Below are positions 274-41,215 of a stretch of DNA of 64,000 bases, piece after piece. This DNA is from an uncultured Thermoanaerobaculia bacterium. Lineage in GTDB: Bacteria > Acidobacteriota > Thermoanaerobaculia > Thermoanaerobaculales > Sulfomarinibacteraceae. The stretch lies in NCBI GenBank assembly GCA_964552395.1, contig CAZKGM010000004.1, positions 4,749-68,748 of the forward strand, given 5' to 3'. The notes below the pieces were generated by a model. It was not told the DNA's origin. It saw only the letters and a program-made list of their open reading frames with translations, and searched no databases. Position numbers and translations under genes: made by a program. Every line of letters starts with the position of its first letter. Positions within the stretch are counted from its first letter, which is position 1.

Positions 274-392
274 GTGCCTCGGCCAACACCTTGGGCACCT
301 TGACTGGGCTGCGGACAACCACTACCTCGCCTCGAGCCGCCGGGCCCGGCCGGAGCGTGAGGCCGCGTATGGCCGGTGCTCGTCAGCTCACC
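274..392 (+). repeat. intergenic repeat element, copy A (left arm plus diverged, shortened core)
   Basis: GTGCCTCGGCCAACACCTTGGGCACC...CTCGAGCCGCCGGGCCCGGCCGGAGCGTGAGGCCGCGTATGG aligns with the family consensus (see findings). The right part is diverged. Confidence 0.6.
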
Positions 393-500
393 TAGAGTGC
401 GGCGAAGGGAAGCTTGGAGAGGAAGCCACCCGCCCGGAGCAGCTCCACGGTCTTGTGGGCGCAGGGCCAGGGTTCGGGCAACGTGGGTATACTCCGGGAC

Positions 501-1688
501 ATGAGACACCATCTCTGTGCCGCGTTGCTGCTGCTCCTCCTGCCCACGGGTGTAGCCCGGGCGGACGAACCCATCGCGATCGGACGGACCGGTCAGATCC
601 ACTCGGACATCCTCCACGAAGACCGGGTCCTGCGGACCTACCTGCCGCGGAGCTACGGCTGGGCGGTCGACCGGCGCTATCCGGTTCTCTACCTGCTCGA
701 TGCCGAGACCGACTTCGTTCACACGGCGAGTGCGGTCGACTACCTGGCCTCCACCGGCCAGATCCCGGAGATGATCGTAGTGGGTGTGGACAGCACGAAC
801 CGTATCCGCGATTTCACACAGACCGACTGGTCCGAGGCATGGGTCGGCGGAGGCGGGGCACCGAAGTTCAAGGCATTCCTCTCGAAGGAGCTGATCCCGG
901 ACATCGAGCGGAGCTATCGAACGAACGGGTTTCGCGTGATCTCGGGGCACTCGGCCGGGGGGCAGTTCGTACTGTACTGCCTGACCTCCGATCCAACGCT
1001 GTTCCAGGCGTATCTGGCGCTGAGCCCGAGCCTCAACTGGGACCACAACCTTCCGCAGCGCTCACTGGAAAAGGTCCTGGCGTCGACCGACAGCTTGAAA
1101 GCGTTCCTTTACGCCGCCCACTCGGACGACTTCGGTCGCGCCCTCGCCGACGACCAACGACTGGTTCACACGCTCGAAACCACGGCACCGCGGGGCTTTC
1201 GCTGGGCGAGCGGCTCGTTCCCGGAGGAGTCGCACTCCGGGATGACCCTTGTCGCCGAGATCGATGGGCTGCGCCACCTCTTCTCCGGATATCGCTACTC
1301 GAACGACCTGCTTGCGCTGGGGATCGATTTCGCACAGGCACATTTTGACGAGGAGTCGAGGGTCGTGGGCTACCACATCGGGGTTCCCGAAGACGTGGTG
1401 AACGATCTGGGCTATGCGGCGCTGTCTGCGGGCAAGACCCCGGACGCCATCACGCTGTTCCGCCGCAACGTCCGGGACAACCCGAACTCGGCCAACGCCT
1501 ACGACAGCCTGGCGGATGGCTACGAAAAGGCCGGCATGTGGAAGGATGCCGCCGCAGCGGTGGACCGCGCCGTCGCTCTCGCCGGCAGGTACCGCGACCC
1601 CGATCGGGCGCAGTTCGTCCAGCACGCGGAGGAGATTCACCGCCGGCTGAGCGGAATTTCGAAAAGCGAACCGGACTCGCACGAGTAA
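501..1688 (+). CDS. secreted alpha/beta-hydrolase, putative esterase family, with C-terminal TPR-like region
   Basis: Track ORF 414..1688. The likely start is ATG 501, giving signal peptide MRHHLCAALLLLLLPTGVARA. G-x-S-x-G nucleophile elbow GHSAGG. YPVLYLLD and 'IPEMIVVGV' are typical of the putative esterase / enterochelin-esterase-like fold. The C-terminus has TPR-like repeats (NSANAYDSLADGYEKAGMWKDAAAAVDRAV). Confidence 0.8.
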   Translation: MRHHLCAALLLLLLPTGVARADEPIAIGRTGQIHSDILHEDRVLRTYLPRSYGWAVDRRYPVLYLLDAETDFVHTASAVDYLASTGQIPEMIVVGVDSTNRIRDFTQTDWSEAWVGGGGAPKFKAFLSKELIPDIERSYRTNGFRVISGHSAGGQFVLYCLTSDPTLFQAYLALSPSLNWDHNLPQRSLEKVLASTDSLKAFLYAAHSDDFGRALADDQRLVHTLETTAPRGFRWASGSFPEESHSGMTLVAEIDGLRHLFSGYRYSNDLLALGIDFAQAHFDEESRVVGYHIGVPEDVVNDLGYAALSAGKTPDAITLFRRNVRDNPNSANAYDSLADGYEKAGMWKDAAAAVDRAVALAGRYRDPDRAQFVQHAEEIHRRLSGISKSEPDSHE

Positions 1689-2033: not shown

Positions 2034-2207
2034 CGTTCGGTTTTCGACCCTGTGCGATTTGGGGAGTTTTGCAAGAGCCTCACGTATCACTTTCTCACAC
2101 TCTTCCGCCGGGCCGGCCCGGAGCGTGCGGACGCGTATGATGGTTTCGATCGAGAGCCCAGCGAGATCAAGAATGCACAGGGGATAACAGCAGTGCCGAG
2201 ACCTGGG
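2034..2207 (+). repeat. intergenic repeat element, copy B (variant-2 right end)
   Basis: CCGCCGGGCCGGCCCGGAGCGTGCGGACGCGTATGATGGTTTCGATCGAGAGCCCAGCGAGATCAAGAATGCACAGGGGATAACAGCAGTGCCGAGACCTGGG. The left arm is diverged, so the left boundary is approximate. Confidence 0.7.
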
Positions 2208-2334
2208 CTCATGAGTTGGAACAGCGTGGCGGGGGCTCGTTCTTCGCTGAAAGTGAGGACTGGCTCACAATGGCGGAACGGTACGACTGGCGCCGTTTCG
2301 GAGATGACTTGCTGCGCGATTCGGAGGGAAGCCG

Positions 2335-4620: not shown

Positions 4621-4654
4621 AGATGCGCTCCGCCCATCGGCACAGGGATGATAC

Positions 4655-5000
4655 GTGCCTGGGCCGACACTTCTGGTACCTTCGCTGAGCCGCCACTCGC
4701 CACGACCTTACCTGGTTGCGCCGGGCCGGCCTGGAGCGTGCGGACGCGTATGATGAGTTAGCCCGGATCGTTCACTCGCGATCTACTGCGACCGACGATA
4801 CGCCAGCCAGCGCCGTGCTCTTCGCGTCTCGGTGTCCTCAACGTACCCTCCGAGTATGCCTGCGGCACCTCGACGCTCAGAGCCCAGTGCTGACAAGCGT
4901 CTCGCCGGTCTCGCTACGATCGCTCATGAACGTACCGGGCTCGATCGGAAGCTCAGCGAGTTCAACAATGAGCAGGGGATGACAACAGTGCCGAGACCTC
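4655..5000 (+). repeat. intergenic repeat element, copy C (long variant with about 182-bp internal segment 4756..4937)
   Basis: The left arm and core GTGCCTGGGCCGACACTTCTGGTACC...GCGCCGGGCCGGCCTGGAGCGTGCGGACGCGTATGATG are followed by the extra segment. The element then resumes GGCTCGATCGGAAGCTCAGCGAGTTCAACAATGAGCAGGGGATGACAACAGTGCCGAGACCTC. Confidence 0.75.
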
Positions 5001-5164
5001 AACGCATGTGCTGCGCCCCCGGTGCCTTTCCTGCAATCCCAGTAGGTACCAGGAACGCGACCCAAAGCTCGTCTCCATGCCCCGAGTCGTCAGGCCGTCC
5101 AGCTGCCGGCCGCCTTTCGTTGGCCGCCCGCTCCGCCCGTCTCAGACCGCTGAGGTCGGCCCGC

Positions 5165-5614: not shown

Positions 5615-6172
5615 CTTCCTTCTCCTCTCTGTTGGTTGTCACTCTCAAGAGAGGAGACCCCCGGCCGTTTTGCTCACACTGGCCTACTCGGCCCGCCAAC
5701 GAGATCACAGCCTTGAAAAGGCGCCCGCATCGGTCCCACGCTCGAAGGATCGCATCGGTGTCAGGCATCCAGGTTTCGTGGTTTGATGACCTCGGGTGCC
5801 ACGTTTCTCACCAGGGCGATCGCTCGCGGGACCCATGATGGCGCGGCGGACTCGGAGCTGCGCCGCGCGCTTGATTGCCTCGATAGCGCGATCGCGGCGT
5901 GAGCCAGAAGGTAAGTCGGCGACAAGGTCGGAAGTGAGTGACTGGCACATTTCTCGGCGCGCACCGGGATCGCTGGAGAAGTAGTTTCTACCCAGGTGGC
6001 GGTCCTGCTCCCGGGTAGTAAGTGCGCTTCCCGGTGGGACACCTGGGAGCTAGATTCGGGATCAGGCGAACAGAAGGCCGCACCAGGACTGGAGGCAGTA
6101 CATGAGCTCGGCTCGTGAAGAGAGCACGATGAGCGATTGGGCCGGATGAGCTGCGTCGAAAGGAGACGTTTG

Positions 6173-7122: not shown

Positions 7123-7197
7123 CTGAGATGTGGTCGCAGGACGGCCGCCGGGCACTCTGGCGTCTGTGAACAGCTGGGGATGGTGAAGCCACGGATC

Positions 7198-7344
7198 GGT
7201 GCCCGGGCCGACACCTCAACACCCTTGGTGAGGTGCCACCCACCATCACCTCACCTCGAGCCGTCGGACCGGCCCGGAGTGAGCGGACGCGTATGGTGGT
7301 CTCGATCGAGAGCTCAGCGAGCGCAGATTCATGTGCCGGGTACC
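7198..7344 (+). repeat. intergenic repeat element, copy D (near-complete, variant-1 ends)
   Basis: GGTGCCCGGGCCGACACC...GGTGAGGTG-ccacccaccat-CACCTCACC-TCGAGCCGTCGGACCGGCCCGGAGTGAGCGGACGCGTATGGTGGTCTCGATCGAGAGCTCAGCGAGCGCAGATTCATGTGCCGGGTACC. The ends GGTGCCCGG / CCGGGTACC are inverted repeats. Confidence 0.8.
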
Positions 7345-7375
7345 TTTTCCAGGAGGTGTTCCCCTCCGTCGGTCT

Positions 7376-9448: not shown

Positions 9449-9501
9449 ATCGCCTCCTCAGTCGAGAGATAACGCCGGCGGCAATGGAATGCAACCGGAG
9501 T

Positions 9502-9566
9502 GGTGCCTGGGCCGGCACTTCTTGTACTTTCACTGGGCTGCCACCCGCCGAGATCAGCCCTCGGAC
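9502..9566 (+). repeat. intergenic repeat element, copy E (left-arm fragment)
   Basis: GGTGCCTGGGCCGGCACTTCTTGTACTTTCACTGGGCTGCCACCCGCCGAGATCAGCCCTCGGAC. It overlaps the last codons and stop (9554..9556) of the minus-strand kinase gene. Confidence 0.6.
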
Positions 9567-11842: not shown

Positions 11843-11970
11843 GGTACCGAGGCTGCTTCCACACGTCGAACCGCCGGACCGGCTCGGAGCCTGCGGACGC
11901 GTATGACGGTCACGATCGACAGCTCAGCAAGTTGATGCAGGAGCAGGATGACAAGTGTGTCGCGACCTGG
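11843..11970 (+). repeat. intergenic repeat element, copy F (short left arm, variant-2 right end)
   Basis: GGTACCGAGGCTGCTTCCACACGTCGAACCGCCGGACCGGCTCGGAGCCTGCGGACGCGTATGACGGTCACGATCGACAGCTCAGCAAGTTGATGCAGGAGCAGGATGACAAGTGTGTCGCGACCTGG. Confidence 0.75.
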
Positions 11971-12121
11971 ACCCATGAGCAGGTCCGGCCTGGCTGGCGA
12001 CTTCTCGGGGAACGAGCTCACTGCGGATAACTTCCCACCTACCGGAGGTTGACTCGACGCGGCTCTGCAGATACGATCGGACCAGTGTAGCCAGAACAAC
12101 AGAACCGGGAACGGGAGGAGG

Positions 12122-13651: not shown

Positions 13652-13831
13652 GGTGCCAGGGCCGGTGCCAGGGTCGACACTTTTGGCATTCTTGGTGAGC
13701 TGCTACCCAGCGCTACCTCACCTCGGACCGCCGGGCCGGCCCGGAGCGTGCGGACGCATATGATGGTCTCGATCGCGAGCTCAGCGGGTTCAGGAATGCG
13801 TCGAGAAGGGCGGAATGGCGTGACTGGCACC
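13652..13831 (+). repeat. intergenic repeat element, copy G (best-preserved, variant-1 ends)
   Basis: (GCCGGTGCCAGG x2)GTCGACACTTTTGGCATTCTT-GGTGAG-ctgctacccagcgctac-CTCACC-TCGGACCGCCGGGCCGGCCCGGAGCGTGCGGACGCATATGATGGTCTCGATCGCGAGCTCAGCGGGTTCAGGAATGCGTCGAGAAGGGCGGAATGGCGTGACTGGCACC, followed by CTTTTCCTTTTCC. The ends GGTGCCAG / CTGGCACC are perfect inverted repeats. Confidence 0.85.
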
Positions 13832-13848
13832 TTTTCCTTTTCCGGTTC

Positions 13849-14238
13849 TCAATCTGGAGCCTGCCCGTACCAGTTGTAGAAGAACGAGATCTTGCCCTCG
13901 TCGTTCCACTTGACCTGAAGAGCGTTCTCCATGCGAGCGGAGCCGCTTTGGACACGCACGACCATGGCGGCCGAGTTGGTCTCGACGTCGATAATCCTGT
14001 CTGTGTACTCGACCTCCATCTGCTCGACATTCGAGAAGAAGCTCTCGTATATCGCTCTGATTCCCTGCCGGTCGGTCTCTCTCTTGGTGTTCCAGGGGTT
14101 GTCGGGATCTGTGCCCGCACCGTGGACGATGTGATCAAACTCCTCAGCGAACAGCTCGGCCACGGCGCCGGCGTTTCTCTCCTTCACGGCCTTCGCATAC
14201 GCTTCGATCCGTTCGTCCAGCTGTTCTCGGGTAGTCAT
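13849..14238 (-). CDS. SnoaL-like / NTF2-fold protein (ketosteroid-isomerase-like)
   Basis: 129 aa. The pattern MTTREQLDERIEAYAKAVKERNAGAVAELFAEEF...IRAIYESFF...W(x)DEGKI is typical of the small NTF2-like SnoaL family. Confidence 0.7.
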   Translation of the reverse strand: MTTREQLDERIEAYAKAVKERNAGAVAELFAEEFDHIVHGAGTDPDNPWNTKRETDRQGIRAIYESFFSNVEQMEVEYTDRIIDVETNSAAMVVRVQSGSARMENALQVKWNDEGKISFFYNWYGQAPD

Positions 14239-14274
14239 TGCTGGTCCTCCTTGGCGTCGGCGCCGGGTCAGATG

Positions 14275-14401
14275 GGTGCAAGGGCCGACACTGTTTGCAC
14301 TTTGGCTGGCCCGCCACCCACCTCCATCTTACTTCGATCCGCCGTGCCGACTCGGAGCGTACGGACTCTCGATCGAGAGCTCGGATGGCGTCACTGGTAC
14401 C
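14275..14401 (+). repeat. intergenic repeat element, copy H (core with ~12-nt deletion)
   Basis: GGTGCAAGGGCCGACACTGTTTGCACTTTGGCTGGCCCGCCACCCACCTCCATCTTACTTCGATCCGCCGTGCCGACTCGGAGCGTACGGA^CTCTCGATCGAGAGCTCGGATGGCGTCACTGGTACC. The GCGTATGATGG block is missing. Confidence 0.75.
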
Positions 14402-14704
14402 TCTTCTTCTTCAACAGGCGCCTTTTCGATACGAAGTCCACGGCACAGAACCGGCGGTGGTTCATGGTGGACATCCGGGCGGTGCTCCTTCTCGGGCCGG
14501 CCATCATCCGGGACGAGCTCAAGGAGGTTTCCGAGCTTGCCGGCATGATGTTGCTCCGGAAGGGGAGCTATCCCGCGGCGCAGCCGGTGAGCTCGCACGA
14601 CTGGGAGGCTATTGTCGCCCTCCGGGCGTGAAAACGACCTACGAGCCTGGTTGACGCCGTGCGCCGCTCCTCGTAGTGTGGTAGAAACGCATCCGGAGGG
14701 TGCC

Positions 14705-18690: not shown

Positions 18691-18693
18691 GAC

Positions 18694-18739
18694 GAGCTCA
18701 AGAATGGGTCGAGAAGGGCGGAGCGGCGTGACTGGCATC
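18694..18739 (+). repeat. intergenic repeat element, copy I (right-arm fragment, variant 1)
   Basis: GAGCTCAAGAATGGGTCGAGAAGGGCGGAGCGGCGTGACTGGCATC matches the right arm of copy G (GAGCTCAGCGGGTTCAGGAATGCGTCGAGAAGGGCGGAATGGCGTGACTGGCACC). It is followed by a CCCTTTTCCCCTTTCTCC tract. Confidence 0.7.
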
Positions 18740-18896
18740 TACTCCCTTTTCCCCTTTCTCCAAACGCCTTCGGCTTGGAGATGGGCAACGCGCGCACGCT
18801 TGACGAACGCCCTCTAGTGACCGGCACGCTTTGTGAGGCCGGCAGGTGTGATGAGGCCCACGCGTGCTGACGGCGGGCGCCTGTAGACTCTCTGGG

Positions 18897-21176
18897 ATGG
18901 AACCACCGAGATCCTGGCGGACGGCGCTCATTCTTGCCGGACTCGTCGTGCTTGCTGCGCCGACGCTGCCGGCCCAGAGCGCGCGGCGCGCCGCGGCGAG
19001 GGTCAGGCCGGGTTCAGGGTGGTTGTCACGCGGCATCGGCGGTGGCGGGGCGCTCTACTCGCCGGCGATCAGCCCTCATGAGCCCGACGAGATCGTCATC
19101 GCCACCGACATGTCCGCGGTCTTCTGGAGCACCAGCTTCGGAGCTCGCTGGCGGGTCGTGCCGTTCGGCGAACTCCAGGGCGGCGTCTCCAGCGAAGTTC
19201 GCTTCACCGCCGACCGGGAGGTTCTTTACGCCATCAATTGTGCAGAGGATCTCCGGATCCCGGTCAGGAGCGACGACGGTGGACGAACCTGGGCACCCCT
19301 GGCGAGCGATCCCACCGACGGCGAGGCATACACCCTGTTCACCGATCCCGCCTCGAGCGACCGCCTGCTCGTCGCGGCCTACGACCGCCTCTACCTTTCG
19401 AACGACGGCGGCGCCAGCTTCACCGAGGTTCACCGCACCCCGGACGAGCATGTCGCCGGCGTCATCTGGAACGGTGACGACGTGTTCGTCGGCACTCGGG
19501 AGGGGCTCCTCTACTCCGTCGACGGCGGCGCCACGTTCACCCTCGCCGCGTCAGGCGGCATCCCGTCGGATGAGGAAATCGTCTCGTTCGCCGGGGCGAC
19601 GTCCGGCGGAACCGTCAGGTTGTACGCCGTCACTCTGAGCGCAGGAGACGTCTGGCCACTGATCACCGGCGGCGAGATGTGGGAGTACCGCGACGTCTAC
19701 CGCCTCGACTGGGGGCACGGCGGCTGGGTCGCCATCGGAAGCGGTCTGCCAGGGGGCGCCCATCCGTTCTTCGTTGCAGCTTCACCGGGTGACATCGATA
19801 CCGTGTACCTGGCGGGCGGGGATGTCGATACCTCCTTCCCCATCGTCTTCCGCTCCGGCGACGGCGGCGGCTCGTGGGTCAGCGTCTTCAGGACCTCGGA
19901 CAACGCCAACATCGCCACCGGCTGGAGCGGCAACGGCGGCGACCACGACTGGTGGTACGGCGAGTACGCCCTCGGCCTGGCGGTCGCGCCTACGGACCCA
20001 GACCGAGTCGTGCTCACCGATCTCGGGTTCGTCCACGTCAGCGACGATGGGGGGGTGACCTGGCGCCAGGCGTACGTGGACCGGTCCGGCGAGAACCCGG
20101 TCGGCGCCCCCACCCCGCGCGGCCGTGCCTACAGCGGCTCCGGACTCGAGGACACCAGCTCGTGGTGGCTCGAGTGGGCCGACCGCGATACCGTGGCCGC
20201 CGGCTTCTCGGACATCCACGGCATCGTCAGCACCGACGGCGGTCGCAGTTGGTCGGCCGGAGTGAGCCACGGCCTTCCTGACAACAGCACGTACTGCATC
20301 GTGGCCGACCGCGCGCGGGGGCTCCTGTACGCCGCCACCTCGTCGGTACACGACCTCTACCAGAGCACGCATCTCACCGACGACCGGATCGACAACGGCG
20401 TGGGCCGCGTCATGGTCTCGTCAGACCGCGGTGCGAACTGGCAGACCCTCCGCGACTTCGGCCTTCCGGTAGTCTGGCTGGCCCTCGATCCGGAAGACCC
20501 CGAGCGGCTCTACGCCAGCGTCGTCAACCGGACAGAGGGCGGGATCTGGACCACCGGCGAGCTTGGCCGGGGCCCCGCCGCCAAGTGGACGCGCCTCGCC
20601 CAGCCGCCTCGCACCGAGGGCCACCCGCTGGCTGTCCGCGTCCTGCCGGACGGCGCCCTTGCCGTCACTTACTCGGGGCGTCGCGACGCGGGCGGCGCCT
20701 TCACCACGAGCTCGGGCGTCTTCCTGAGCACCGACGGCGGCGCCAGCTGGGAAGACCGCTCCGACCCGGCCATGCTGCGCTGGACCAAAGACCTCGTCGT
20801 CGACCCCCACGACCCGAGCGGCGACACCTGGTACGTCGCCGTTTTCTCGCACTGGGGGAGCCCCCCGAACGAGGTCGGCGGTCTCTACCGCACCCGGGAT
20901 CGCGGCGCGACCTGGCAGCGGGTTGCCGAGCTGTACCGGGTCGAGTCATGCGCCATCGATCCTGTCGACCCCGAACGGCTCTTCCTCACCACCGAGACTC
21001 AGGGCATGTGGTCCACAACCAACCTGCGCGCCGCGACACCCCTGTTCACACCGGTCGCAGGCTACCCCTTCCGCCACCCCACCCGGGTCGTCTTCAACCC
21101 ATTCGACCCCGGGGAGGTGTGGGCCACCAGCTTCGGCAACGGTCTTCGCGTGAGCCGCGTGGGTGCCAGGCGTTAG
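18897..21176 (+). CDS. secreted BNR/Asp-box repeat protein (sortilin-Vps10 / GH74-like double beta-propeller)
   Basis: Track ORF 18864..21176. The likely start is ATG 18897 (MEPPRSWRTALILAGLVVLAAPTLPAQS). Nine S/T-x-D-x-G-x-(T/S)-(W/F) Asp-boxes: SDDGGRTW, SNDGGASF, SVDGGATF, SGDGGGSW, SDDGGVTW, STDGGRSW, SSDRGANW, STDGGASW, TRDRGATW. Confidence 0.85.
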   Translation: MEPPRSWRTALILAGLVVLAAPTLPAQSARRAAARVRPGSGWLSRGIGGGGALYSPAISPHEPDEIVIATDMSAVFWSTSFGARWRVVPFGELQGGVSSEVRFTADREVLYAINCAEDLRIPVRSDDGGRTWAPLASDPTDGEAYTLFTDPASSDRLLVAAYDRLYLSNDGGASFTEVHRTPDEHVAGVIWNGDDVFVGTREGLLYSVDGGATFTLAASGGIPSDEEIVSFAGATSGGTVRLYAVTLSAGDVWPLITGGEMWEYRDVYRLDWGHGGWVAIGSGLPGGAHPFFVAASPGDIDTVYLAGGDVDTSFPIVFRSGDGGGSWVSVFRTSDNANIATGWSGNGGDHDWWYGEYALGLAVAPTDPDRVVLTDLGFVHVSDDGGVTWRQAYVDRSGENPVGAPTPRGRAYSGSGLEDTSSWWLEWADRDTVAAGFSDIHGIVSTDGGRSWSAGVSHGLPDNSTYCIVADRARGLLYAATSSVHDLYQSTHLTDDRIDNGVGRVMVSSDRGANWQTLRDFGLPVVWLALDPEDPERLYASVVNRTEGGIWTTGELGRGPAAKWTRLAQPPRTEGHPLAVRVLPDGALAVTYSGRRDAGGAFTTSSGVFLSTDGGASWEDRSDPAMLRWTKDLVVDPHDPSGDTWYVAVFSHWGSPPNEVGGLYRTRDRGATWQRVAELYRVESCAIDPVDPERLFLTTETQGMWSTTNLRAATPLFTPVAGYPFRHPTRVVFNPFDPGEVWATSFGNGLRVSRVGARR

Positions 21177-21196
21177 GAAGCTGGGAGATCTTGACA

Positions 21197-21262: not shown

Positions 21263-21457
21263 GTCGTGCCGTACCGCTGGCCAAGCCGCTGCTGTGGTGT
21301 GGCGTGGGCAGTTGTCAGCATCACCCGTTTAGGTGACGCCATTCGATTCGCCTCAGCCTATCTTGATATTGCGCGATCTCCGTCGCACGCCACGAGCCCG
21401 TGGGGCCCGCGTCCGCGAGCTCCGGCACAGGCGAATCGACAGCAGGGGGGTGCACCG

Positions 21458-22041: not shown

Positions 22042-22151
22042 CCGGCACCTTGTCCACGATGGCTTCCCGCCGCTATCGAGGCTGGCGTCAGGCATCTGAT
22101 AGACTCGGATTCAGAGATCGAGAAGCAGGGCAGTTGGGAACGGTGAGGCCG
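22038..22151 (+). repeat. intergenic repeat element, copy K (left and right arms, central core deleted)
   Basis: GTGACCGGCACCTTGTCCACGATGGCTTCCCGCCGCTATCGAGGCTGG resembles the left arm of copy E. GGATTCAGAGATCGAGAAGCAGGGCAGTTGGGAACGGTGAGGCCG resembles the right arm of copy G. The stop codon of the upstream small ORF lies in its first bases. Confidence 0.5.
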
Positions 22152-22248: not shown

Positions 22249-24675
22249 ATGAGCACGGCATCTGGGGGCACGACTCCAGCACAACCGGCGGGTTTCACGA
22301 TGGGGCCAAAGATCTGGCGTCTGATTCTCGACGCGGTCGGGGGTCCCGTGTTTCTCCACGACCTGCACTACCGCGTGATCCTGGCAAACGCGGCCTATTG
22401 CCGCGCAGCCGGCGTGAGCGAGGCGGACGCCCTGGGCAAACCCTACTGGGAGGTCTTTCCGCCGGGCGCGGGGCCGCGGCCCGGGTGCCGGGCTGCAACA
22501 CACGGGAAGGACCGTACCCCGAGCCCAGAGGACGTGCTCGTCGGGGAGAAGTACTTCTCCTCAGTGGACTACATGGTGCCCGACGACCAGGGGAGACCTC
22601 TCTACTTCTTGCATGTGCTCACCGACATCACCGAGCAGAGGCGGACCGAGGCCGCGCTGAGGGAGAGCGAGGCGCGCTTTCGCACCGTCATCGACACCGC
22701 GCAGGACGCCATCATCTCCCTCGATGGGGAATCCGACGTGATCACCGCCGCGAATCTGGCGTCCGAGAGGATCTTCGGCTACAGCAGGGAGGAGTTGATC
22801 GGGCAGAGCCTTCACGGCCTTCTCATGCCGGCCCGCTTTCTCGAGGCGAATGCGAAGGGTATGGCGGAATTCGCCAGGACAGGGGAAGGCGCGGCGGTCG
22901 GCAGGACCGTCGAGCTCGTCGCATTGCACAAGGACGGAACGGAGTTCCCCATCGAGCTCTCCCTCTCCGCCACGCACCTTCACGGAACGTGGTTCGCCAC
23001 CGGTATCGCGCGCGACATCAGCGAACGCAAGCGGGGGGAGGCCCTGCAAAGAGACCTGGCGGCGAAGTACAGTGCCATGTTCGAATCATCGTCCGACGCC
23101 ATCATGCTGCTCGACGACGACGTGTTGATCGACTGCAACGCGGCCGCCGTGCGGATGTTCGGCGGTTCCACATCCGACGACCTCACGGGCAGGCATCTCC
23201 TCGGGCTCTCGCCACCGGCCCAGCCGGGTGGCGGGGACTCCAGGAGCCTGGCGGAGAGGCTCATCGCCACGGCCCTTTCGAAGGGAAGCCTCCAGTTCGA
23301 GTGGCTGCATCGCCGGCTCGACGGCGCCGACTTCGTCGCCGATGTCCTGCTAACCGCCCTGGAGCTGGACGGCAAGCCGTTGCTGCAGGCCACGGTGCGC
23401 GACACCACCGAAGTCAGGCGATTGGCGTTGGAGTTGAAGGAAAGCGAGGAGCGTTACCGCAATATTACCGAGACGACGAGCGACTGGGCCTGGCAGACCG
23501 ATGAGAACGGCGCCTATGTCTATGTCAGCCACAAGATCATCGACGTCCTTGGTTACAGCCCGGAAGAGGTGTACGGAAAGACCCCCTTCGACCTGATGCC
23601 TGCGGAGGAGGCGGCGCGCGTGGGGGAGATCTTCAGTAACCTGGCCAGGTCAAAGTTGCCGTTCTCTTTTCGTGAGAACATCAACATTCACAAGGACGGC
23701 CATCCGGTCATTCTCGAGACCAGCGGAGTGCCGGTCCTTGGTGACGATGGAGAGCTTCGCGGCTATTTCGGGGTCGAACACGACATCACGCGGCGCAGAC
23801 AGCTGGAGGAAAAGGTCCGCGAAACGGAGGCCCAGTACAGGGTCATCTTCGAGCAGTCCGCGGACGTTACCTACCTCCTGGGCCGTGATGGGAAGTTCAC
23901 ATCACTGAGCCCTTCATTCGAGACTCTGACGGGCTGGCATCCCAAGGTGTGGGTCGGCAAGCCCTTCGCTCCCCTGATTCACCCGGACGACCTGCCGCGA
24001 GCCATGGAGATCTTCATGGAGGCTTGCTCCGGCAAGAGCTCACCGGACTTTGAACTGCGCGTAGCGAAGAAGTCCGGGGGCTACGTGGATGCCGAGCTCA
24101 GCATGGTACCGGTGGATATGAGCGACGGCACCGTCGTCATAGGGATTGCGCGGGACGTCAGCGCACGCAAGCGTGAGGAGGAGAGGATCCTCGTCCTTGC
24201 CACCACCGATGGACTCACGGGACTGAACAACCGACGCGAGCTCTCCGCCATCCTTGCCAAGGAGGTGGAGCGAACGGAGAGGTACGGCAGCCCTCTGTCT
24301 CTGATCATGTGCGACATCGACCACTTCAAGCAGGTCAACGATACGTTCGGCCATGAGGTGGGTGATCTGGTGCTCCGGGCTGTCAGCCAGCTGATGACAC
24401 AGAATACGCGTTTGCTGGACGTGGTAGCGAGATGGGGCGGGGAGGAGTTCATGGTTCTCCTGCCGCAATCGAATCTCGACGCTGCCTGCATTGTGGCGGA
24501 GAAGTTGCGCGCGTCGATCGCAGGGTTTCAGTTCGAGAAGATCGGTCACGTGACGCTGAGCCTTGGTGTGACCGGCTACACGCCGACGGATGACGTCGAG
24601 GCGATGCTGAAGCGGGTCGACGATGCGTTGTACAAGGCCAAGGACAACGGGAGAAACCGCGTCGAGATCGGATAG
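22249..24675 (+). CDS. multi-PAS sensor diguanylate cyclase (GGDEF domain)
   Basis: Track ORF 22156..24675; the start is uncertain (ATG 22249 or 22300). There are about five PAS/PAC modules (e.g. SEARFRTVIDTAQDAIISLD, SEERYRNITETTSDWAWQTD, TEAQYRVIFEQSADVTYLL). C-terminal GGDEF domain: TDGLTGLNNRREL..DIDHFKQVNDTFGHEVGD..RWGGEEF..ALYKAKDNGRNRV. Confidence 0.9.
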   Translation: MSTASGGTTPAQPAGFTMGPKIWRLILDAVGGPVFLHDLHYRVILANAAYCRAAGVSEADALGKPYWEVFPPGAGPRPGCRAATHGKDRTPSPEDVLVGEKYFSSVDYMVPDDQGRPLYFLHVLTDITEQRRTEAALRESEARFRTVIDTAQDAIISLDGESDVITAANLASERIFGYSREELIGQSLHGLLMPARFLEANAKGMAEFARTGEGAAVGRTVELVALHKDGTEFPIELSLSATHLHGTWFATGIARDISERKRGEALQRDLAAKYSAMFESSSDAIMLLDDDVLIDCNAAAVRMFGGSTSDDLTGRHLLGLSPPAQPGGGDSRSLAERLIATALSKGSLQFEWLHRRLDGADFVADVLLTALELDGKPLLQATVRDTTEVRRLALELKESEERYRNITETTSDWAWQTDENGAYVYVSHKIIDVLGYSPEEVYGKTPFDLMPAEEAARVGEIFSNLARSKLPFSFRENINIHKDGHPVILETSGVPVLGDDGELRGYFGVEHDITRRRQLEEKVRETEAQYRVIFEQSADVTYLLGRDGKFTSLSPSFETLTGWHPKVWVGKPFAPLIHPDDLPRAMEIFMEACSGKSSPDFELRVAKKSGGYVDAELSMVPVDMSDGTVVIGIARDVSARKREEERILVLATTDGLTGLNNRRELSAILAKEVERTERYGSPLSLIMCDIDHFKQVNDTFGHEVGDLVLRAVSQLMTQNTRLLDVVARWGGEEFMVLLPQSNLDAACIVAEKLRASIAGFQFEKIGHVTLSLGVTGYTPTDDVEAMLKRVDDALYKAKDNGRNRVEIG

Positions 24676-24678
24676 ACG

Positions 24679-24845
24679 GGTGCCGGGACCGACACTTGTG
24701 GCACTTTCGTCGCGCCGCCACCCACCATCACCTGACGTTGAGCCGCCGGGCCGAGCCGGAGCGTGCGGACGCGTATGAGGGGCTAGATCGAGAGCTCAGC
24801 GGGTTCAGGAAGGAGTGGGGGAGGGCGAACGAGGTGACGAGCCCC
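24679..24845 (+). repeat. intergenic repeat element, copy L (near-complete)
   Basis: GGTGCCGGGACCGACACTTGTGGCACTTT-CGTC-gcgccgccacccaccatcacct-GACG-TTGAGCCGCCGGGCCGAGCCGGAGCGTGCGGACGCGTATGAGGGGCTAGATCGAGAGCTCAGCGGGTTCAGGAAGGAGTGGGGGAGGGCGAACGAGGTGACGAGCCCC. It begins 4 nt after the GGDEF gene stop. Confidence 0.8.
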
Positions 24846-25092
24846 CTCTTGCTGGTAGCCGGTGTAACGGCTTGTCCGGGGCTCACCCGGGAGATCGTGG
24901 CCGGAGTCGGAGCGGCGATGGTGATCAGTGCAGCGATACTCCCTCGCCCGGAGAGAGGCTGAGCCACGTCGGGACGAGGCTGCGAGAATCAAGCTCATGG
25001 TGTGGGATTCTCCGACACGCCGCGGCTCTGCACGCCTTCGGTCGGTCAGGAGGGAGGCTCTGGGGAGAGCATGATCGGCCAGAACGTGCCGA

Positions 25093-32368: not shown

Positions 32369-32369
32369 G

Positions 32370-38154: not shown

Positions 38155-38168
38155 GTTCACTCCTATCC

Positions 38169-38230: not shown

Positions 38231-38270
38231 TGACCCCACGCGAGGAAGCCGCCGTGCATCAGGAAGGACT

Positions 38271-38345
38271 GGTGCAGGGGCCGGCACTCTTGGCACTTTC
38301 GCGTCGGCCTCGGGCGCCAAGCATGACGTCGTCACCTGGCGCCAC
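38271..38345 (+). repeat. intergenic repeat element, copy M (left-arm fragment)
   Basis: GGTGCAGGGGCCGGCACTCTTGGCACTTTCGCGTCGGCC... aligns with the left ends of copies E, H and L. The remainder is diverged. Confidence 0.5.
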
Positions 38346-38382
38346 CGGTGCGACGGCGAGGAGGCCGGCATGGAGCCCGGCG

Positions 38383-40536
38383 TTACGAGCCCGGTGAGGT
38401 CTGCTCGAGATGGGCCAGGAGGCGAAGCGCAATCGAGTTCTGCGCCGCATACCGGCGGTCTCCGGCGGTGCGGGCCAGGAAGTCCTTGTAGGCGGCAATC
38501 GCCGCCGGACGGTTCCCGACCAGCTCCTCGGCCAGCCCACGGCTGAGACGGGCCTGGTGGAGGCTCGGCGCTATCTCAAGGGCGCGGTCGAAGCACGGAA
38601 GCGCGTCGGCGGGGCGCTTCTGCTGCAGGTAGAGGGTGCCGAGGCCGTTCCACGGGTCGGCATAGCGGGAGTCGACTTCGATCGCACGGCGGTAGGCGCG
38701 TTCCGAGTCCTGGAAGCGCCTTGCGCCGCGCAGGACGTCGCCAAGGTTGTTCAGGATGCGCGGATCGTTCGGGTCGAGTCGGGCCGCTTCCTCGAGCTGC
38801 CTGCTCGCGCCGTCGAGGTCGCGCTTGACCGCCAGCGCCATGCCGAGCGCGTTGTGCGCGTCGGCCCGATAGGGCTCGCCCTCGACCACCTTCTTCAACG
38901 CGGCCAGAGCTTCGTCGGTACGGCCCGCTTCAAGCAGGGTGACCGCGAGGTTGTAGCGCAGGCTGCGAGCGTCGACCGCGAGATCGACGGCGCGGCGGAA
39001 GAGGGTAATCGCGCGATCGAGATTGCCGGCGCGATGGCACGCCTGGGCCAGCTCGCCGATGAACAGTGGGTTGTTCGGGTCCGCGGCAACGATCTTCTCG
39101 AGGAGCGGCCGCGCCACATCAACGTCGCCGGCCTCCAGCGCGGACTGTGCCTGGTCGTAGGCGCGTAGGAGGCCGACCATCGCCTTTGGGTCCTTGCGCT
39201 GCCCGCCGCCTGCTGCGCTCCCGCCTCCGCCGAGGTAGCCCAGGCTCTGGAGCTTGGCGCGGGCCTCGCGGTCGAGGGCCGCTTTCCGTGCGACAACCTC
39301 TCCGGACGCGAGCGTTGCGAGAGCGTCGGCCAGCGCGTCGCCGTCGGCCGAACGACCGGGCAGGAGGTTGTGCTCCTCGCCGGGATCGCGCTTCAGGTCA
39401 TAAAGCTCCGCTTCGGGAGCGGCGATGTACTTCAGCCTGCCACGCCGGAGCGCAGCAATCGGGCTCCAGCCGAAGTTCTCGGCGTAGTGCGACTCGGCGT
39501 ACACGTCCTCGGCGGCGGGCTGTCGTCCGGAGGCGAGTGATTCGGCGAGGTCGTGCCCGTCGAAATGCCCCTGACCCTCGGGGACCTGGGCCTCGAGCAT
39601 GGAGAGTAGCGTCGGCGCGAGATCTACCAGGCTCAGCGGCGCCTCTGCGACGAAACCGGCCGGCAGCACGGCCGGGGCACGGACGATCACCGGCACGTGC
39701 AAGCACCCCTGGTAGAGCAGCAGCCCGTGCGTCAGCTCGCCGTGGTCGCCGAGCGCCTCGCCATGGTCGGCGGCCACCGCGACGACGGTGTGCGACGCCA
39801 GTCCCGACTGCTTCAGCCACGTGAGGATGCGGCCGATCTGGTGGTCAACCTCGGCAATCTCGCCGTCGTAGGGGTGCGAGCTGAAACGCGTCCGGTACGG
39901 CTCGGGCGGACGGTACGGCGTGTGGGCGTCATAAAGGTGGACCCAGGCAAAGAACGGCTTGGCGCTGGGCGTTCCAAGCCAGGCGAGGGCGCGGTCCACG
40001 ACGACACTGCCGGGGCGCTGGGCGTTGAGGCCGGCACCCGGGTCGAACGGGATCTCGTCATCGTAGCTGTCAAAGCCTCGGGCGAGGCCGAACCGGTGGT
40101 CGAGCACGTAGGCGCCGATGAACGCGCCGGTCCGATAGCCGGCGCCGGACAGGAGCGTCGCCAGCGTTGGCGTCGAGTCGCCGAGCCGGTCCCCGCCGTT
40201 GGTGCGCATCCCGTCGTGAGGGGGCAGCAGGCCGGTCAGGATCGACGCGTGGGCCGGCGCGGTGAGCGGTACCGGCGTCGAGACGTCGGCCAGGCGCACT
40301 CCCGCCGCGGCCAACGCGTCCAGATTCGGGGTCTCGGCGTCGCGGTCGCCCCAAGCGCCGAGGTGGTCGGCGCGCACAGTGTCGATGGTGACGAGCAGCA
40401 GGTTGAAGCCCTTGGCCGAAGCCGGGGGCTGCGAATGTGGGCAGCCGGAGAGCGCCCAGGCAAGGCAGATGAGGCAGACCATGCCGCCTGCACGGCGCCC
40501 GCAGAGCCGCCTGAGGCGCAGGCCGGCCGGACGCAT
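38383..40536 (-). CDS. sulfatase-like (alkaline-phosphatase superfamily) lipoprotein fused to C-terminal TPR repeats
   Basis: 717 aa. Lipobox ALSGC. FNLLLVTIDTVRADHLG, HLYDAHTPY and ADHGEALGDHGE are typical of the sulfatase fold. At the nucleophile motif it reads PLTAPAHASILTG (Thr-x-Pro-x-His) instead of C/S-x-P-x-R. About 8 TPR units follow. Confidence 0.8.
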   Translation of the reverse strand: MRPAGLRLRRLCGRRAGGMVCLICLAWALSGCPHSQPPASAKGFNLLLVTIDTVRADHLGAWGDRDAETPNLDALAAAGVRLADVSTPVPLTAPAHASILTGLLPPHDGMRTNGGDRLGDSTPTLATLLSGAGYRTGAFIGAYVLDHRFGLARGFDSYDDEIPFDPGAGLNAQRPGSVVVDRALAWLGTPSAKPFFAWVHLYDAHTPYRPPEPYRTRFSSHPYDGEIAEVDHQIGRILTWLKQSGLASHTVVAVAADHGEALGDHGELTHGLLLYQGCLHVPVIVRAPAVLPAGFVAEAPLSLVDLAPTLLSMLEAQVPEGQGHFDGHDLAESLASGRQPAAEDVYAESHYAENFGWSPIAALRRGRLKYIAAPEAELYDLKRDPGEEHNLLPGRSADGDALADALATLASGEVVARKAALDREARAKLQSLGYLGGGGSAAGGGQRKDPKAMVGLLRAYDQAQSALEAGDVDVARPLLEKIVAADPNNPLFIGELAQACHRAGNLDRAITLFRRAVDLAVDARSLRYNLAVTLLEAGRTDEALAALKKVVEGEPYRADAHNALGMALAVKRDLDGASRQLEEAARLDPNDPRILNNLGDVLRGARRFQDSERAYRRAIEVDSRYADPWNGLGTLYLQQKRPADALPCFDRALEIAPSLHQARLSRGLAEELVGNRPAAIAAYKDFLARTAGDRRYAAQNSIALRLLAHLEQTSPGS

Positions 40537-41104
40537 CGACCCCCGCTTCGTCGCTGCGGGTATGATTGTGCGGAGGCAGATAATGGCGGGCCCCTTTCTC
40601 GGCGTTCACCATGCTAGCCCGCGACCGACCCCTGTCAAGGCCCGCATTCTCGCCATGGTGTTTCGTTGGGGAGCAGCCTGCCTGTTCCCGCGGATGTGCC
40701 GAGCGATGCCGACTACGGGCGCGCGCAGCCTCCTCCTCGGTGGATGCCAGAGCCGACAGTCTTGGGATTCTCAAGCGGCGCCACTGAACGGTGCCGAGCA
40801 GTGCCACATCTCATATCCGACATTGCGATGCTCCGGGTCGTCATCCGCTGGCCATCCTGTCGCGGGTGGCCGCTCCCTCCGGTCATGGACCGGGGCCGCC
40901 TCCGCCGCGACCGGACCGCCATGAAACACCTCCGTCGTTGCTCTCGAAGCCCGGCCCCAGGCTGGCGGCGGGGTACTCCGGATCGACGCGCGTGATGACG
41001 AGCTGCTCAATGCCTCTGATGCCTGCGTTCTCGAGGATGTCTTCGAGGGTGGCTATCGGATCGCCTCGCCTCCGTCCGCGGCTTCACGGTGGGTGGGATG
41101 AGGA

Positions 41105-41215
41105 GCCGACGGCCGACCGGACGACCCGGACTTGCCGCGGGCGTATCATGGGCTGAATCGAGAGTTCAGTGGAATCAAGAACGAGGCGTCGATGGCGGAG
41201 GTGCCGGGGGTGGCG
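41105..41215 (+). repeat. intergenic repeat element, copy N (diverged)
   Basis: GCCGACGGCCGACCGGACGACCCGGACTTGCCGCGGGCGTATCATGGGCTGAATCGAGAGTTCAGTGGAATCAAGAACGAGGCGTCGATGGCGGAGGTGCCGGGGGTGG aligns with the core and right arm. It is the most diverged copy. Confidence 0.55.

Follow-up and report, generated by a model that had tools for sequence, protein, structure and literature searches.

Why does one repeat element occur in almost every intergenic gap over ~50 kb of this acidobacterial DNA, and why does every copy point the same way? The window (the whole stretch analysed, 64,000 nucleotides) was searched on both strands with an nhmmer profile built from its own copies, yielding 14 matches at E <= 2e-8, each on the + strand; two of these (4648-4815 and 4936-5019) count as one copy split by a nested MITE. 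The minus strand gave zero matches even at E <= 10, a repeat search of the window found no part of the element inverted, and a 23-nt core pattern with up to 3 mismatches had 5 matches, all on the + strand, against 0.00 expected. By these searches the repeat family described in the original prediction is real and its single orientation holds. Thirteen of the 15 sites listed there are family members, while the site at 38169 is a fragment of an unrelated MITE (MITE2) and that at 22038 only a 14-nt end motif; the composite consensus was correct but merged two alternative 3′ tails. The copies and associated features are as follows.

267..396, + strand: E1, 5′ modules and diverged core, upstream of the esterase gene (414-1688); nhmmer model 2-133, E = 1.8e-28; module scan.
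2035..2219, + strand: E2, core with a variant 5′ module and tail B, in the gap from the esterase to the penicillin amidase (2335-4620); nhmmer 4-185, E = 1.2e-41; module scan.
4648..5019, + strand: E3, full 5a-5b-core-tail B, core interrupted by the nested MITE; nhmmer, two matches; orthologous in position in a related MAG (L022), where the amidase stop codon is followed by the same junction.
4760..4941, no strand given: MITE2, unrelated 182-nt MITE nested in E3, outside the family; 24-nt terminal inverted repeat, 79%; nhmmer.
5917..5952, + strand: solo end motif, tail A or right-inverted-repeat-like, GTGACTGGCAC; repeat search family D17, blastn-short, pattern search.
7193..7353, + strand: E4, 5a-5b-core ending in a short 'X' tail (GATTCATGTGCCGGGTACCTTTTCC), right beside the amidohydrolase stop codon (gene 7376-9448, minus strand); nhmmer 3-182, E = 5e-39; orthologous in position in L022 (alignment with L022 15790-16314).
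9498..9566, + strand: E5, 5′ part alone, in the gap from the amidohydrolase start to the Ser/Thr kinase stop (kinase 9554-11818, minus strand); nhmmer 4-72, E = 8.3e-11.
11856..11985, + strand: E6, 3′ part (core and tail B), in the gap of the divergent kinase-OmpA gene pair; nhmmer 57-187, E = 3.6e-31.
13652..13849, + strand: E7, full A-type, duplicated GGCCGGTGCCAG at the 5′ end and tail A at the 3′ end, downstream of the OmpA gene's own terminator (13572-13593); nhmmer 4-189, E = 1.9e-52 (the match itself spans 13660-13849; tail A by module scan); ends pair over 8 nt (GGTGCCAG/CTGGCACC).
14270..14410, + strand: E8, 5′ modules, core with internal deletion, tail-A-like end; nhmmer 3-126 (14270-14382); tail motif 14385-14402.
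18693..18752, + strand: E9, tail A alone, in the gap of a divergent gene pair; tail A by module scan, E = 9.9e-17; nhmmer 18693-18749.
21162..21276, + strand: E10, extra 5′ module M0 (GGTGCCAGGCGTTAGGAAGCTGGGAG), which provides the stop codon of the BNR gene, and 5a-5b; nhmmer 3-87 (21192-21276); M0 match 21162-21186.
22030..22051, + strand: solo end motif of 14 nt (GTGACCGGCACCTT), located where a gene ends, weak assignment; blastn-short, pattern search.
24674..24868, + strand: E11, full A-type, beginning at the PAS-GGDEF stop codon (22156-24675); nhmmer 3-198, E = 6.8e-49.
38265..38348, + strand: E12, decayed 5′ part, between convergent genes; nhmmer 2-78, E = 4.2e-11.
40739..40788, + strand: weak 5a-like remnant; nhmmer E = 0.032; 5a module E = 0.005.
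41141..41215, + strand: E13, decayed 3′ core half and tail remnant, upstream of the epimerase gene; nhmmer 100-159 (41141-41200), E = 1.6e-11.

Every window copy is intergenic, as first claimed, and flanked by GC3-supported ORFs; copies lie upstream and downstream of genes and between convergent or divergent ones, and about half are followed by no + strand gene. The peptide-like strings reported earlier come from open frames in an element that is non-coding, as the lack of 3-base periodicity in the variation between copies shows. Another 5 copies lie upstream of the window on an overlapping contig, and the ~40 copies in six independent contig groups (window plus L016, 19; L022, 9; L003, 5; L010, 5; L012/L017, 1; L001, 1) include 0 orientation conflicts, an agreement with a chance of ~2^-34. 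MITE2 provides an internal contrast: its second fragment, at 53661-53699, is inverted, so that it occurs in both orientations. The family is non-autonomous and interspersed, as predicted, and local segmental duplication was rejected since the flanks differ and copies occur on other contigs and in a second species.

Structurally, the element is a non-coding mosaic of ~190 nt (190-300 nt): its 5′ modules vary, its tails come in alternative forms, and the 55-75 nt core between them is nearly invariant. The order in a complete copy is inverted-repeat-like left end, 5a, 5b, core, tail A or B, and right inverted repeat. The core, GGAGCGTGCGGACGCGTATGATGGTCTCGATCGA(A/G)AGCTCAGCG, stays near-invariant even where flanking modules were replaced, and by module scan many copies have no core. 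Module borders repeatedly show the short palindrome GGTGCC-N-GGCACC, and a conserved GAY-N motif precedes GGTGCC at the left end. Terminal inverted repeats of 25-36 nt are present in three copies, the L001 copy being flanked by one of 36 nt (92%), and reversed tail modules lie 5′ of copies L016_3712 and L022_7301; most copies have no obvious terminal inverted repeats, and their two ends are asymmetric. The element is confined to a single narrow acidobacterial lineage, and its probable ancestor is a MITE that had terminal inverted repeats.

Clustering is strong: copies are found in 12 of the 14 gaps of 1-25 kb, in 2 of 8 between 25 and 41 kb and in none of the 14 at 41-64 kb (12/14 vs 0/14, Fisher p = 6e-6), which confirms the earlier remark that the last part of the window (41.3-64 kb) has no copy. 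The occupied part has a lower GC content, and in the 74 kb examined the family is restricted to a low-GC variable segment. The array ends abruptly at ~41 kb, inside what looks like one replichore, with skew and gene direction unchanged there. Along it, identity to the family consensus, which is dominated by a young subfamily, declines (Spearman -0.80, p = 7e-5; within the window alone not significant, p = 0.07). Exact tracts common to copies of the upstream part (L016, 1.8-5.7 kb) measure 21-62 nt, a length that permits homologous recombination; between the older window copies they are mostly 7-17 nt. This upstream part looks like a cassette array: it holds four compact + strand ORFs without assigned function and with atypical GC3 (0.62-0.68), each starting 0-20 nt past an element tail, and two of them starting at the tail's ATG, where the conserved CTCATGAG is the called start codon. 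In the older part, genes point both ways. The copies are unlike randomly transposed elements in that they form a bounded, polar array of direct repeats separating genes or small gene groups.

Cargo between the repeats has been replaced. The window and MAG ALJrbin.24 (L022), from a related species, have in common an amidase (90% aa) and an amidohydrolase (~92% nt), each with an element copy at the same position beside it, and the DNA between those two copies is unrelated: a 149-aa gene and a cytochrome c gene in the window, a 1378-aa LTD/Exo_endo_phos gene in L022 (clean two-sided swap, n = 1). The gene upstream of the amidase is also unrelated, though the amidase is flanked on both sides by copies in both genomes. 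Orthologous gaps, whose comparison had been proposed for presence or absence and target duplications, hold copies at the same positions, and no target-site duplications were found at the copies. An amidohydrolase homologue (90% aa) in another metagenome has no elements around it, and its homology to the window breaks off ~50 nt before the ATG on one side and at the stop codon on the other, where the elements start. Moreover, near-identical population contigs, which as short-read metagenome assemblies could be partly chimeric, differ in structure, with breakpoints exactly at element or module boundaries though not at one fixed nucleotide. Two contigs compared over 4 kb carry 19 of 21 substitutions or indels inside two element copies. 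Copy similarity is decoupled from copy position: copies at orthologous positions align only loosely, and young tail-B copies from different sites and species are 90-93% identical, with orthologous amidase third-codon identity at 84%.

We tentatively read the locus, with a probability of roughly 40%, as a recombination-maintained cassette array bounded by direct repeats, integron- or IS26-like yet a member of neither group; the repeats look like the borders of exchangeable gene cassettes without known integron parts. Such an array would grow and reshuffle through recombination at the element copies themselves, either RecA-dependent between conserved cores or mediated by a putative recombinase recognising the core, and segments carrying, or flanked by, one copy would be inserted, replaced or deleted at resident copies. 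Since this recombination would yield and retain direct repeats only, uniform orientation would be a built-in consequence, as in attC and IS26 arrays. Growth could have a direction, and the tail-B ATG or the core could play a role in cargo expression. No recombinase or integrase linked to the array was found; the only integrase seen, in L012, is part of a tRNA-Arg island abutting a single copy. Counting against the array reading, divergence between most window copies is by now too great for RecA to recombine them efficiently, genes of the older part lie in both directions, unlike classical cassettes, and there is no single fixed breakpoint nucleotide, one two-sided swap, and variants from short reads.

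Integron cassette arrays and integrase-less attC clusters (CALIN) are one known counterpart (Cury et al. 2016, PMC4889954). Resemblances include repeats (about 60-200 nt) that separate successive genes and all strictly point one way, compact function-unassigned cassettes of atypical composition in the young part, cargo that varies between relatives while repeats stay put, one toxin-antitoxin pair reversed between copies (L003), and a possible polarity with younger copies at one end. Unlike attC sites, the element has no hairpin, folds worse than shuffles, and has no R′′-L′′/L′-R′ pairing and no conserved GTTRRRY at its 3′ boundary; it is also longer (190-300 nt), its central core is invariant and its ends resemble inverted repeats. 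No IntI was seen near the array, and many cargo genes are large, probably self-expressed and in either direction, unlike those of integrons. In IS26 translocatable-unit arrays, direct orientation arises because units are incorporated beside a copy already present (Harmer et al. 2014, PMC4196232). Here, too, directly oriented copies are interleaved with unrelated cargo, but IS26 is an 820-bp autonomous element with its own transposase, whereas the present one is ~190 nt, non-coding and mosaic, with no enzyme found. Other mosaic intergenic repeats, the Neisseria NIMEs (dRS3 plus RS units), E. coli BIMEs and pneumococcal BOX, likewise surround motifs held in common with alternative modules; NIMEs have been linked to variable genes and to recombination, and GGTGCC-N-GGCACC at the module borders recalls their dRS3. 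These families are built of palindromic units in both or alternating orientations, and we know of none that fills nearly every gap of a 50-kb tract in one orientation.

The mechanism first suggested, in which the copies are non-autonomous derivatives of an ssDNA transposon (IS200/IS605 PATE-like or otherwise fork-coupled) inserted in one orientation relative to fork movement, is unlikely. Transposition of ssDNA at the replication fork is expected to produce strand or orientation bias, with all copies of one replichore pointing the same way, and the strict orientation independent of gene direction agrees with this. The + strand is probably the leading strand, because cumulative GC skew rises along it and most genes of 41-64 kb lie on it; masked GC skew in element orientation is positive in ~4 of 6 independent contig groups. 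The asymmetric ends, and the want of obvious terminal inverted repeats in most copies, also fit, as does GAY-N, which could be a target motif. However, PATEs (IS200/IS605-derived) and REP/RAYT REPINs, non-autonomous and intergenic like this element, are defined by strong hairpins, REPINs by inverted doublets. REP-like palindromes and strong subterminal hairpins are both absent from the element. Neither strand of a full copy, taken as ssDNA, folds as well as its dinucleotide shuffles (z +2.5 and +1.2), and single copies as RNA likewise fold worse. Terminal inverted repeats, absent from IS200/IS605 elements, are retained as remnants in three copies, and the domain boundary at ~41 kb is sharp under unchanged skew and gene direction. 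The window and ~90 kb of related loci revealed no gene for Y1/HUH, TnpB or RAYT, and the HUH genes proposed as a check were missing from the ~150 kb of related sequence covered. The cargo swap is also left unexplained by fork-coupled insertion.

It is quite improbable that the family is an ordinary MITE, moved by a DDE transposase, whose orientation was filtered by selection, either for a polar signal (promoter, start codon or terminator) or against harmful inversions between inverted neighbours. The 36-nt repeat around the L001 copy, the two reversed tail modules, the complementary E7 ends, the tail start codon of two ORFs and an IS66 transposase near the tandem L010 copies are consistent with such an origin, although the ends of IS66 are, to our knowledge, unrelated to those of this element. 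Against it stand the missing target-site duplications, the near-absolute selection needed for 0 reversed among ~40 copies despite their varied gene settings, and the nested MITE2 of the same genome, found in both orientations.

Just as improbable are polar protein-binding or chromosome-organising sites, Ter-, KOPS-, Chi- or regulator-like, whose core would be bound by a host protein in a direction-dependent manner, with core and orientation both held by selection. The near-invariant core, the uniform orientation on the probable leading strand, and the little secondary structure, with several short palindromes and iteron-like direct repeats, favour such sites. Known polar motifs, however, measure 8-23 nt, against ~190 nt here; the family is confined to one narrow lineage and, in the 74 kb examined, to a low-GC variable segment, many copies have no core at all, and the L022 copy at an orthologous position has a decayed core beside a 92% conserved gene.

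Transcription of the + strand into small structured RNAs, an idea also raised originally, or into cis-regulatory leader RNAs is highly improbable, since uniform orientation and the position directly upstream of several + strand ORFs, with two called start codons in the tail, are outweighed by the absence of Rfam matches at gathering thresholds (one chance-level match at E <= 10), a weak RNAalifold consensus (-14 kcal/mol) whose covariation term does not favour the fold, the poor folding of single copies, an E7 interior with no sigma-70-like promoter or terminator, and the roughly half of all copies that no + strand gene follows.

The array cargo looks horizontally acquired, judging from its homologues: beyond close relatives, the nearest named homologues of the amidase belong to Rhodanobacteraceae (~75%), and the next-nearest of the amidohydrolase to Kiritimatiellae and Desulfovibrio (~57% or less).

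Repeats of about 190 nt recur in the intergenic DNA of the window, and all of them read on the plus strand, as the original prediction had it. A search of both strands with an nhmmer profile, derived iteratively from the window, returned 14 matches, all on the plus strand (E = 2e-52 to 2e-8), and a looser run (E <= 10) added a single weak plus-strand match at 40739-40788. A 23-nt core pattern gave five matches at no more than three mismatches, again all on the plus strand, against 0.00 expected from shuffled sequence. The repeat search of the window joined the sites first listed by direct-repeat families of 47-149 nt and found no inverted copy of any element part. Thirteen of those 15 sites belong to the family; the site at 38169 is a piece of another repeat, a second miniature inverted-repeat element (MITE), and that at 22038 has a 14-nt end motif and nothing more. 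The intergenic position likewise held, since all copies lie between ORFs backed by third-position GC. Nothing is unusual about the genes on either side, which are not related among themselves (esterase, penicillin amidase, cytochrome c, amidohydrolase, Ser/Thr kinase, OmpA, BNR/sortilin and PAS-GGDEF); a sulfatase gene lies farther right than the others. The copies referred to by name are:

E3, plus strand: copy 3' of the penicillin amidase gene, its core interrupted by the second MITE
E4, 7193-7353, plus strand: copy abutting the amidohydrolase stop codon
E5, 9498-9566, plus strand: copy near the amidohydrolase start
E7, 13652-13849, plus strand: full copy of the A type

In the genome pattern scan the family was found in one MAG only, 'Acidobacteria bacterium ALJrbin.24' (contig L022), and the metagenome scan yielded 17 stretches. 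One of the related contigs, L016, overlaps the window and adds 10.2 kb upstream with five further copies, all on the plus strand. The copies are distributed over the non-redundant contig groups as follows:

window and L016: 19 copies
L022: 9 copies
L003: 5 copies
L010: 5 copies
L012/L017: 1 copy
L001: 1 copy

No contig group contains an orientation conflict (about 40 copies, 0 reversed), for which the chance under random orientation is about 2^-34. Reversed sequence is limited to end modules of up to 50 nt. Local segmental duplication is ruled out, because the copies have unrelated flanks and are also present on other contigs and in a further species.

Aligned copies form a mosaic of five kinds of part, and their 3' boundaries are CATGAGCTGG or CTGGCACCTTTTCC. 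The modules and the terminal repeat are:

5a, 5' module: (A/T)GAYNGGTGCCWGGGCCGACACTTTTGGCACTTTTGG
5b: TGGGCTGCCACCCACCACCTCACCTCGAGCC, with the alternative version CACGTATCACTTTCTCACA in three copies
core, near-invariant even in the most diverged copies: CCGCCGGGCCGG..GGAGCGTGCGGACGCGTATGATGGTCTCGATCGA(A/G)AGCTCAGCG
tail B: ..CAACAATGACCAGGGGATGACACCAGTGCCGAGACCTCGACTCATGAGCTGG
tail A: ..GGCGGAATGGCGTGACTGGCACCTTTTCC
X, shorter tail variant: GATTCATGTGCCNGGCACCTTTCC
M0, extra 5' module of some copies: GGTGCCAGGCTTTAGGAAGTTGGGAAGTTCTGG
terminal inverted repeat of the element, 25-36 nt: GGAAAAGGTGCCNGGCAC

Terminal inverted repeats are strong in one copy, recognisable in two or three others and absent or decayed in most, which have none of 9 nt or longer. 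The L001 copy carries a reversed tail A directly 5' and a forward tail A 3', giving a 36-nt terminal inverted repeat with 92% complementarity; copies L016_3712 and L022_7301 have reversed X modules on their 5' sides; and the ends of E7 are complementary over 8 nt, an end pairing of 8 bp that is limited to A-type copies. The L001 repeat, the reversed X modules and the ends of E7 make a MITE with terminal inverted repeats the probable ancestor of the family, one of the two repeats having since been lost in most copies. No target-site duplications flank the 35 aligned copies. The M0 module occurs at window 21162-21195, at L016 1625-1665 and 5440-5477, and in L003; it carries iteron-like direct repeats (GGAAGTT GGGAAGTT, or GAAGTATCGAAGTAAT), the stop codon of the BNR gene lies within the M0 of the window copy, and the left edge of M0 is the exact site of one population-level breakpoint.

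Open frames reading ..GPERADAYDGLDRKLSE.. (plus strand) and ..SYASARSGPARR.. (minus strand) are kept in most copies. Substitutions among copies fall 32/31/35 by codon phase over the core and the first part of the tail, without three-base periodicity, indels are not multiples of three, and three concatenated open-frame peptides found only 2 matches among 5.8 billion proteins. A coding element is ruled out on these grounds, in agreement with the earlier view that the elements give rise to spurious ORFs. The suggestion of a structured RNA family was rejected as well and is ranked last among the readings: Rfam 15 gave no match over the whole window at gathering thresholds and none, or one at chance level, for single copies at E <= 10, the RNAalifold consensus (-14 kcal/mol) lacks covariation support, and a full copy folds worse than its dinucleotide shuffles as RNA (z +1.22). 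The same holds for ssDNA (z +2.46 for the top strand, +1.17 for the bottom), where the sole stem near the left end has 5 bp and a 15-nt loop. Because the copies are not hairpin-rich, REP, attC and IS200/IS605-end architectures are argued against, and an attC or REP-like hairpin was rejected on the folding and on the absence of core-site motifs.

Several other origins and functions were tried and set aside. IMG/VR pattern scans gave no true match (four matches to a 17-mer are chance), and blastn against phage and plasmid collections gave no match to the element, on which a phage or plasmid origin was rejected. Derivation as att sites from tRNA genes was rejected too, the window and main loci being without tRNA genes. 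The TGGCAC and TATGAT motifs, considered as a sigma-54/sigma-70 promoter, have a spacing that is off consensus by eye, and a promoter scan around E7 found none. Nor is the element the terminator of the OmpA gene, because E7 lies 3' of that gene's own good terminator.

Copies are confined to the left part of the window. With one simple gene caller applied throughout and intergenic gaps of at least 60 nt counted, 12/14 gaps hold copies in 1-25 kb, 2/8 in 25-41.3 kb and 0/14 in 41.3-64 kb (Fisher's test, p = 6e-6), which confirms the absence from the last 23 kb noted earlier; the 41.3-64 kb segment includes 5.4 kb of non-coding DNA. GC content is lower where copies occur (0.56-0.65 in the upstream part of L016, 0.64-0.67 in 1-25 kb) than to the right (0.64-0.74, mostly 0.66-0.69). 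Cumulative GC skew climbs across the whole window and most genes at 41-64 kb are on the plus strand, which makes a single replichore with the plus strand leading probable for the whole window; by the same two measures the copies end at about 41 kb without a change of replication direction.

The 16-kb contig of ALJrbin.24 has nine co-oriented copies, which again part nearly every gene, and it has only two genes in common with the window, the amidase and the amidohydrolase. The amidase is 90% identical in protein, and 28 nt 3' of its stop codon are kept together with the start of the next element; the amidohydrolase has about 92% DNA identity, and a copy abuts its stop codon in both genomes. Between these two orthologously placed copies, the window holds a 149-aa gene and the cytochrome c gene (about 2.2 kb), whereas L022 holds an unrelated 1378-aa LTD/Exo_endo_phos gene (about 4.1 kb). 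The amidase has a copy on each side in both genomes, yet the gene upstream is unrelated between them; the 422-aa gene at this place in L022 was considered as an orthologue of the esterase and proved unrelated on direct comparison.

In more distant relatives the same genes occur without elements. Amidase homologues at 82-83% identity (L023, L034, L035) have other neighbours, and the downstream flanks in these three element-free relatives are too diverged to mark an insertion point by empty-site comparison. The Logan contig L036 has a 90%-identical amidohydrolase, and its homology with the window stops about 50 nt before the ATG at one end and at the stop codon at the other, where E5 and E4 begin. 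Beyond close relatives, the nearest named homologues of the amidase (2335-4620) are in the gammaproteobacterial Rhodanobacteraceae (about 75%), and for the amidohydrolase (7376-9448) identity falls from 90% to 57% or less, in Kiritimatiellae, Desulfovibrio and Omnitrophica. Because these next-nearest homologues belong to other phyla, the comparison points to horizontal acquisition of the amidase and amidohydrolase. Copies at orthologous positions of the window and L022 are alignable loosely at best; young tail-B copies at unrelated sites of the two species are 90-93% identical, and third-codon identity of the orthologous amidases is 84%. Since copy similarity does not track position, the pattern fits gene conversion or turnover among copies.

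Contigs from the same population are 99.5-100% identical over kilobases and then diverge abruptly at module borders, a comparison in which part of the breakpoints may be chimeric because the strain contigs are short-read assemblies. The left end of a copy is the exact point at which L012 and L006/L017 begin to differ, L009 parts from L016 at CCATCGGTGCCAGGC, and L020 does so directly after AAAGGTGCC. Over 4 kb of L014 and L016, 19 of the 21 differences are inside two element copies. The crossover points among these breakpoints are not tied to one nucleotide. The elements yield spurious ORFs and are also a probable cause of broken or scrambled short-read assemblies in this lineage. At L012 42-4194, a tRNA-Arg gene precedes genes for an S24 repressor-like protein, a tyrosine integrase and a small terminase subunit. 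This small PICI-like island reaches exactly to the left boundary of a copy, where L006 and L017 carry other DNA.

The five upstream copies in L016 share 87-94% mutual identity, with exact common tracts of 21-62 nt, and those in the window are 77-85% identical to everything else, with common tracts mostly of only 7-17 nt. Along the array, identity to the family consensus, which is dominated by the young subfamily, drops (Spearman -0.80, p = 7e-5; p = 0.07 for the window alone). The DNA between the young copies has four compact plus-strand ORFs (156, 335, 210 and 296 aa). Their products resemble membrane proteins or lipoproteins and gave no significant Pfam or PADLOC match; GC3 in these ORFs is 0.62-0.68, compared with 0.8-0.9 in typical host genes. 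Each ORF starts 0-20 nt past an element tail, and two (L016 2649 and 4541) have their called ATG within the conserved CTCATGAGC at the 3' boundary of tail B. From these start positions and the use of the tail ATG, the element may serve as a portable leader or start site for downstream ORFs. Anti-phage defence as cargo was rejected, with no PADLOC match among ten cargo proteins. A BrnT-like toxin and CopG/BrnA-like antitoxin pair, both below Pfam cut-offs, lies reversed between copies at L003 1084-1757, as some toxin-antitoxin cassettes do in chromosomal integrons.

The reading that we rank first, at a probability of about 0.4, is that modules are exchanged by recombination at element copies. 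Modules would be inserted, replaced and deleted at resident copies, either by homologous recombination via the conserved core or by a recombinase recognising it, and only direct repeats would arise and persist, which would explain the co-orientation. The sharp domain boundary and the pattern of nearly one copy per gap would follow as well, and so would the mosaicism of the copies, their similarity regardless of position, the breakpoints at element borders and the swap of cargo between copies that stay in place. In integron arrays, recombination at resident sites gives direct repeats only (PMC4889954), and arrays of IS26 translocatable units follow the same logic (PMC4196232). Module exchange is placed first because it explains more than strand-specific insertion at the replication fork, the next in rank and in itself doubtful. 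The latter, raised originally as ssDNA transposition of the IS200/IS605 or REP/RAYT kind, accounts for co-orientation and nothing else, and is weakened because the element is hairpin-poor and keeps remnants of terminal inverted repeats and because the copies stop abruptly at 41 kb; if polarity does follow replication, a hairpin-poor element with strand-specific insertion would also be unusual. Somewhat less probable again, and level with each other, are a MITE with selected polarity and a polar protein-binding site. MITEs mobilised by DDE transposases insert in either orientation and leave target-site duplications, whereas here 0 of about 40 copies are reversed and the 35 aligned copies are without duplications; random MITE transposition cannot be the source of this co-orientation.

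Among known systems, integrons, CALINs and IS26 arrays are those whose way of working the array shares, but features that define each of them are missing from it. The array resembles integrons and CALINs in having co-oriented sites that part cassettes whose content differs between relatives. An attC site, however, forms a hairpin by R''-L''/L'-R' pairing with extrahelical bases and has a GTTRRRY R' core site at its 3' boundary; the element folds no better than shuffles, and this motif is not at its 3' boundaries. An IntI integrase with attI at the array end is needed for a complete integron, not for a CALIN; none was found in 74 kb (window and L016), which stops short of the left end of the array. 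The repeated unit of IS26 arrays encodes its own transposase, whereas the element is non-coding and only about 190 nt long. The subterminal hairpins that mark IS200/IS605 PATEs at both ends were absent when ssDNA folds were set against shuffles; PATEs also lack terminal inverted repeats; most copies here have none of 9 nt or longer either, but the L001 copy has its 36-nt repeat and two copies have a 5' reversed tail module. No ORF in the window, or in about 90 kb of related loci, proved to encode a Y1 HUH TnpA/TnpB partner. The orientation of PATEs follows replication direction and flips between replichores; the comparison here covers a single replichore segment, and masked GC skew in the direction of the element was positive in about four of six independent contig groups. 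REPs of RAYT systems (REPINs), which come with a RAYT gene, are palindromic 20-40-nt units, usually in inverted doublets, and the element has neither such a palindrome nor doublets, all copies being direct. NIMEs, BIMEs and BOX elements share the modular mosaicism; they occur in both or alternating orientations. The literature searched, Rfam, phage and plasmid collections and, beyond one MAG, the genome collection gave no description or match of the family. We class it with interspersed mosaic repeats or MITE derivatives, which in this case make up a direct-repeat cassette array.

The integron is the textbook bacterial platform that gathers promoterless genes behind co-oriented recombination sites, and IS26 arrays arrive at the same architecture by a quite different enzyme. 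It is conceivable, if improbable, that the array represents a previously undescribed integron-like gene-capture system of Acidobacteria, in which an asymmetric, hairpin-less site of about 190 nt with an invariant core of 55-75 nt would be used by a putative recombinase to build polar arrays of horizontally acquired genes, the tail giving a start codon or leader to new cassettes. A third, unrelated repeat that delimits exchangeable modules, here in an environmental phylum, would make direct-repeat cassette arrays a recurrent way to organise horizontally acquired genes, and the invariant core would be a sequence handle for such arrays and their recombinase in metagenomes.

Other repeats were met in passing. 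The second MITE, unrelated to the family, is 182 nt long (4760-4941) with a 24-nt terminal inverted repeat (AGCCCGGATCGTTCACTCGCGATC...) and is nested in the core of E3; a fragment of it lies at 38163-38195 (the site at 38169), and an end fragment is inverted, on the minus strand, in the element-free part at 53661-53699. In L010, an IS66-family transposase gene (766-2277) lies 0.8 kb from a decayed copy (3034-3109), and three head-to-tail copies at 4764-5106 are truncated on their 3' sides (model positions 4-46, 2-126 and 4-185); such junctions of a truncated copy with a fresh 5' end occur also in L003 and L022. Within the OmpA-family gene, three tandem 90-nt repeats at 12830-13188 (73-79% identical) are thrombospondin type 3 repeats. 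Repeats of about 174-177 nt at 50320-51510 (60-80% identical), inside a 951-aa minus-strand ORF (48858-51713), probably represent a repeated protein domain. Finally, 28389-28827 is 79-85% identical to 36603-36787 and 37899-38163 across about 8-9 kb, and these segments are placed at the ends, or close to them, of two genes (26974-28347 and 36619-38154) that differ otherwise.
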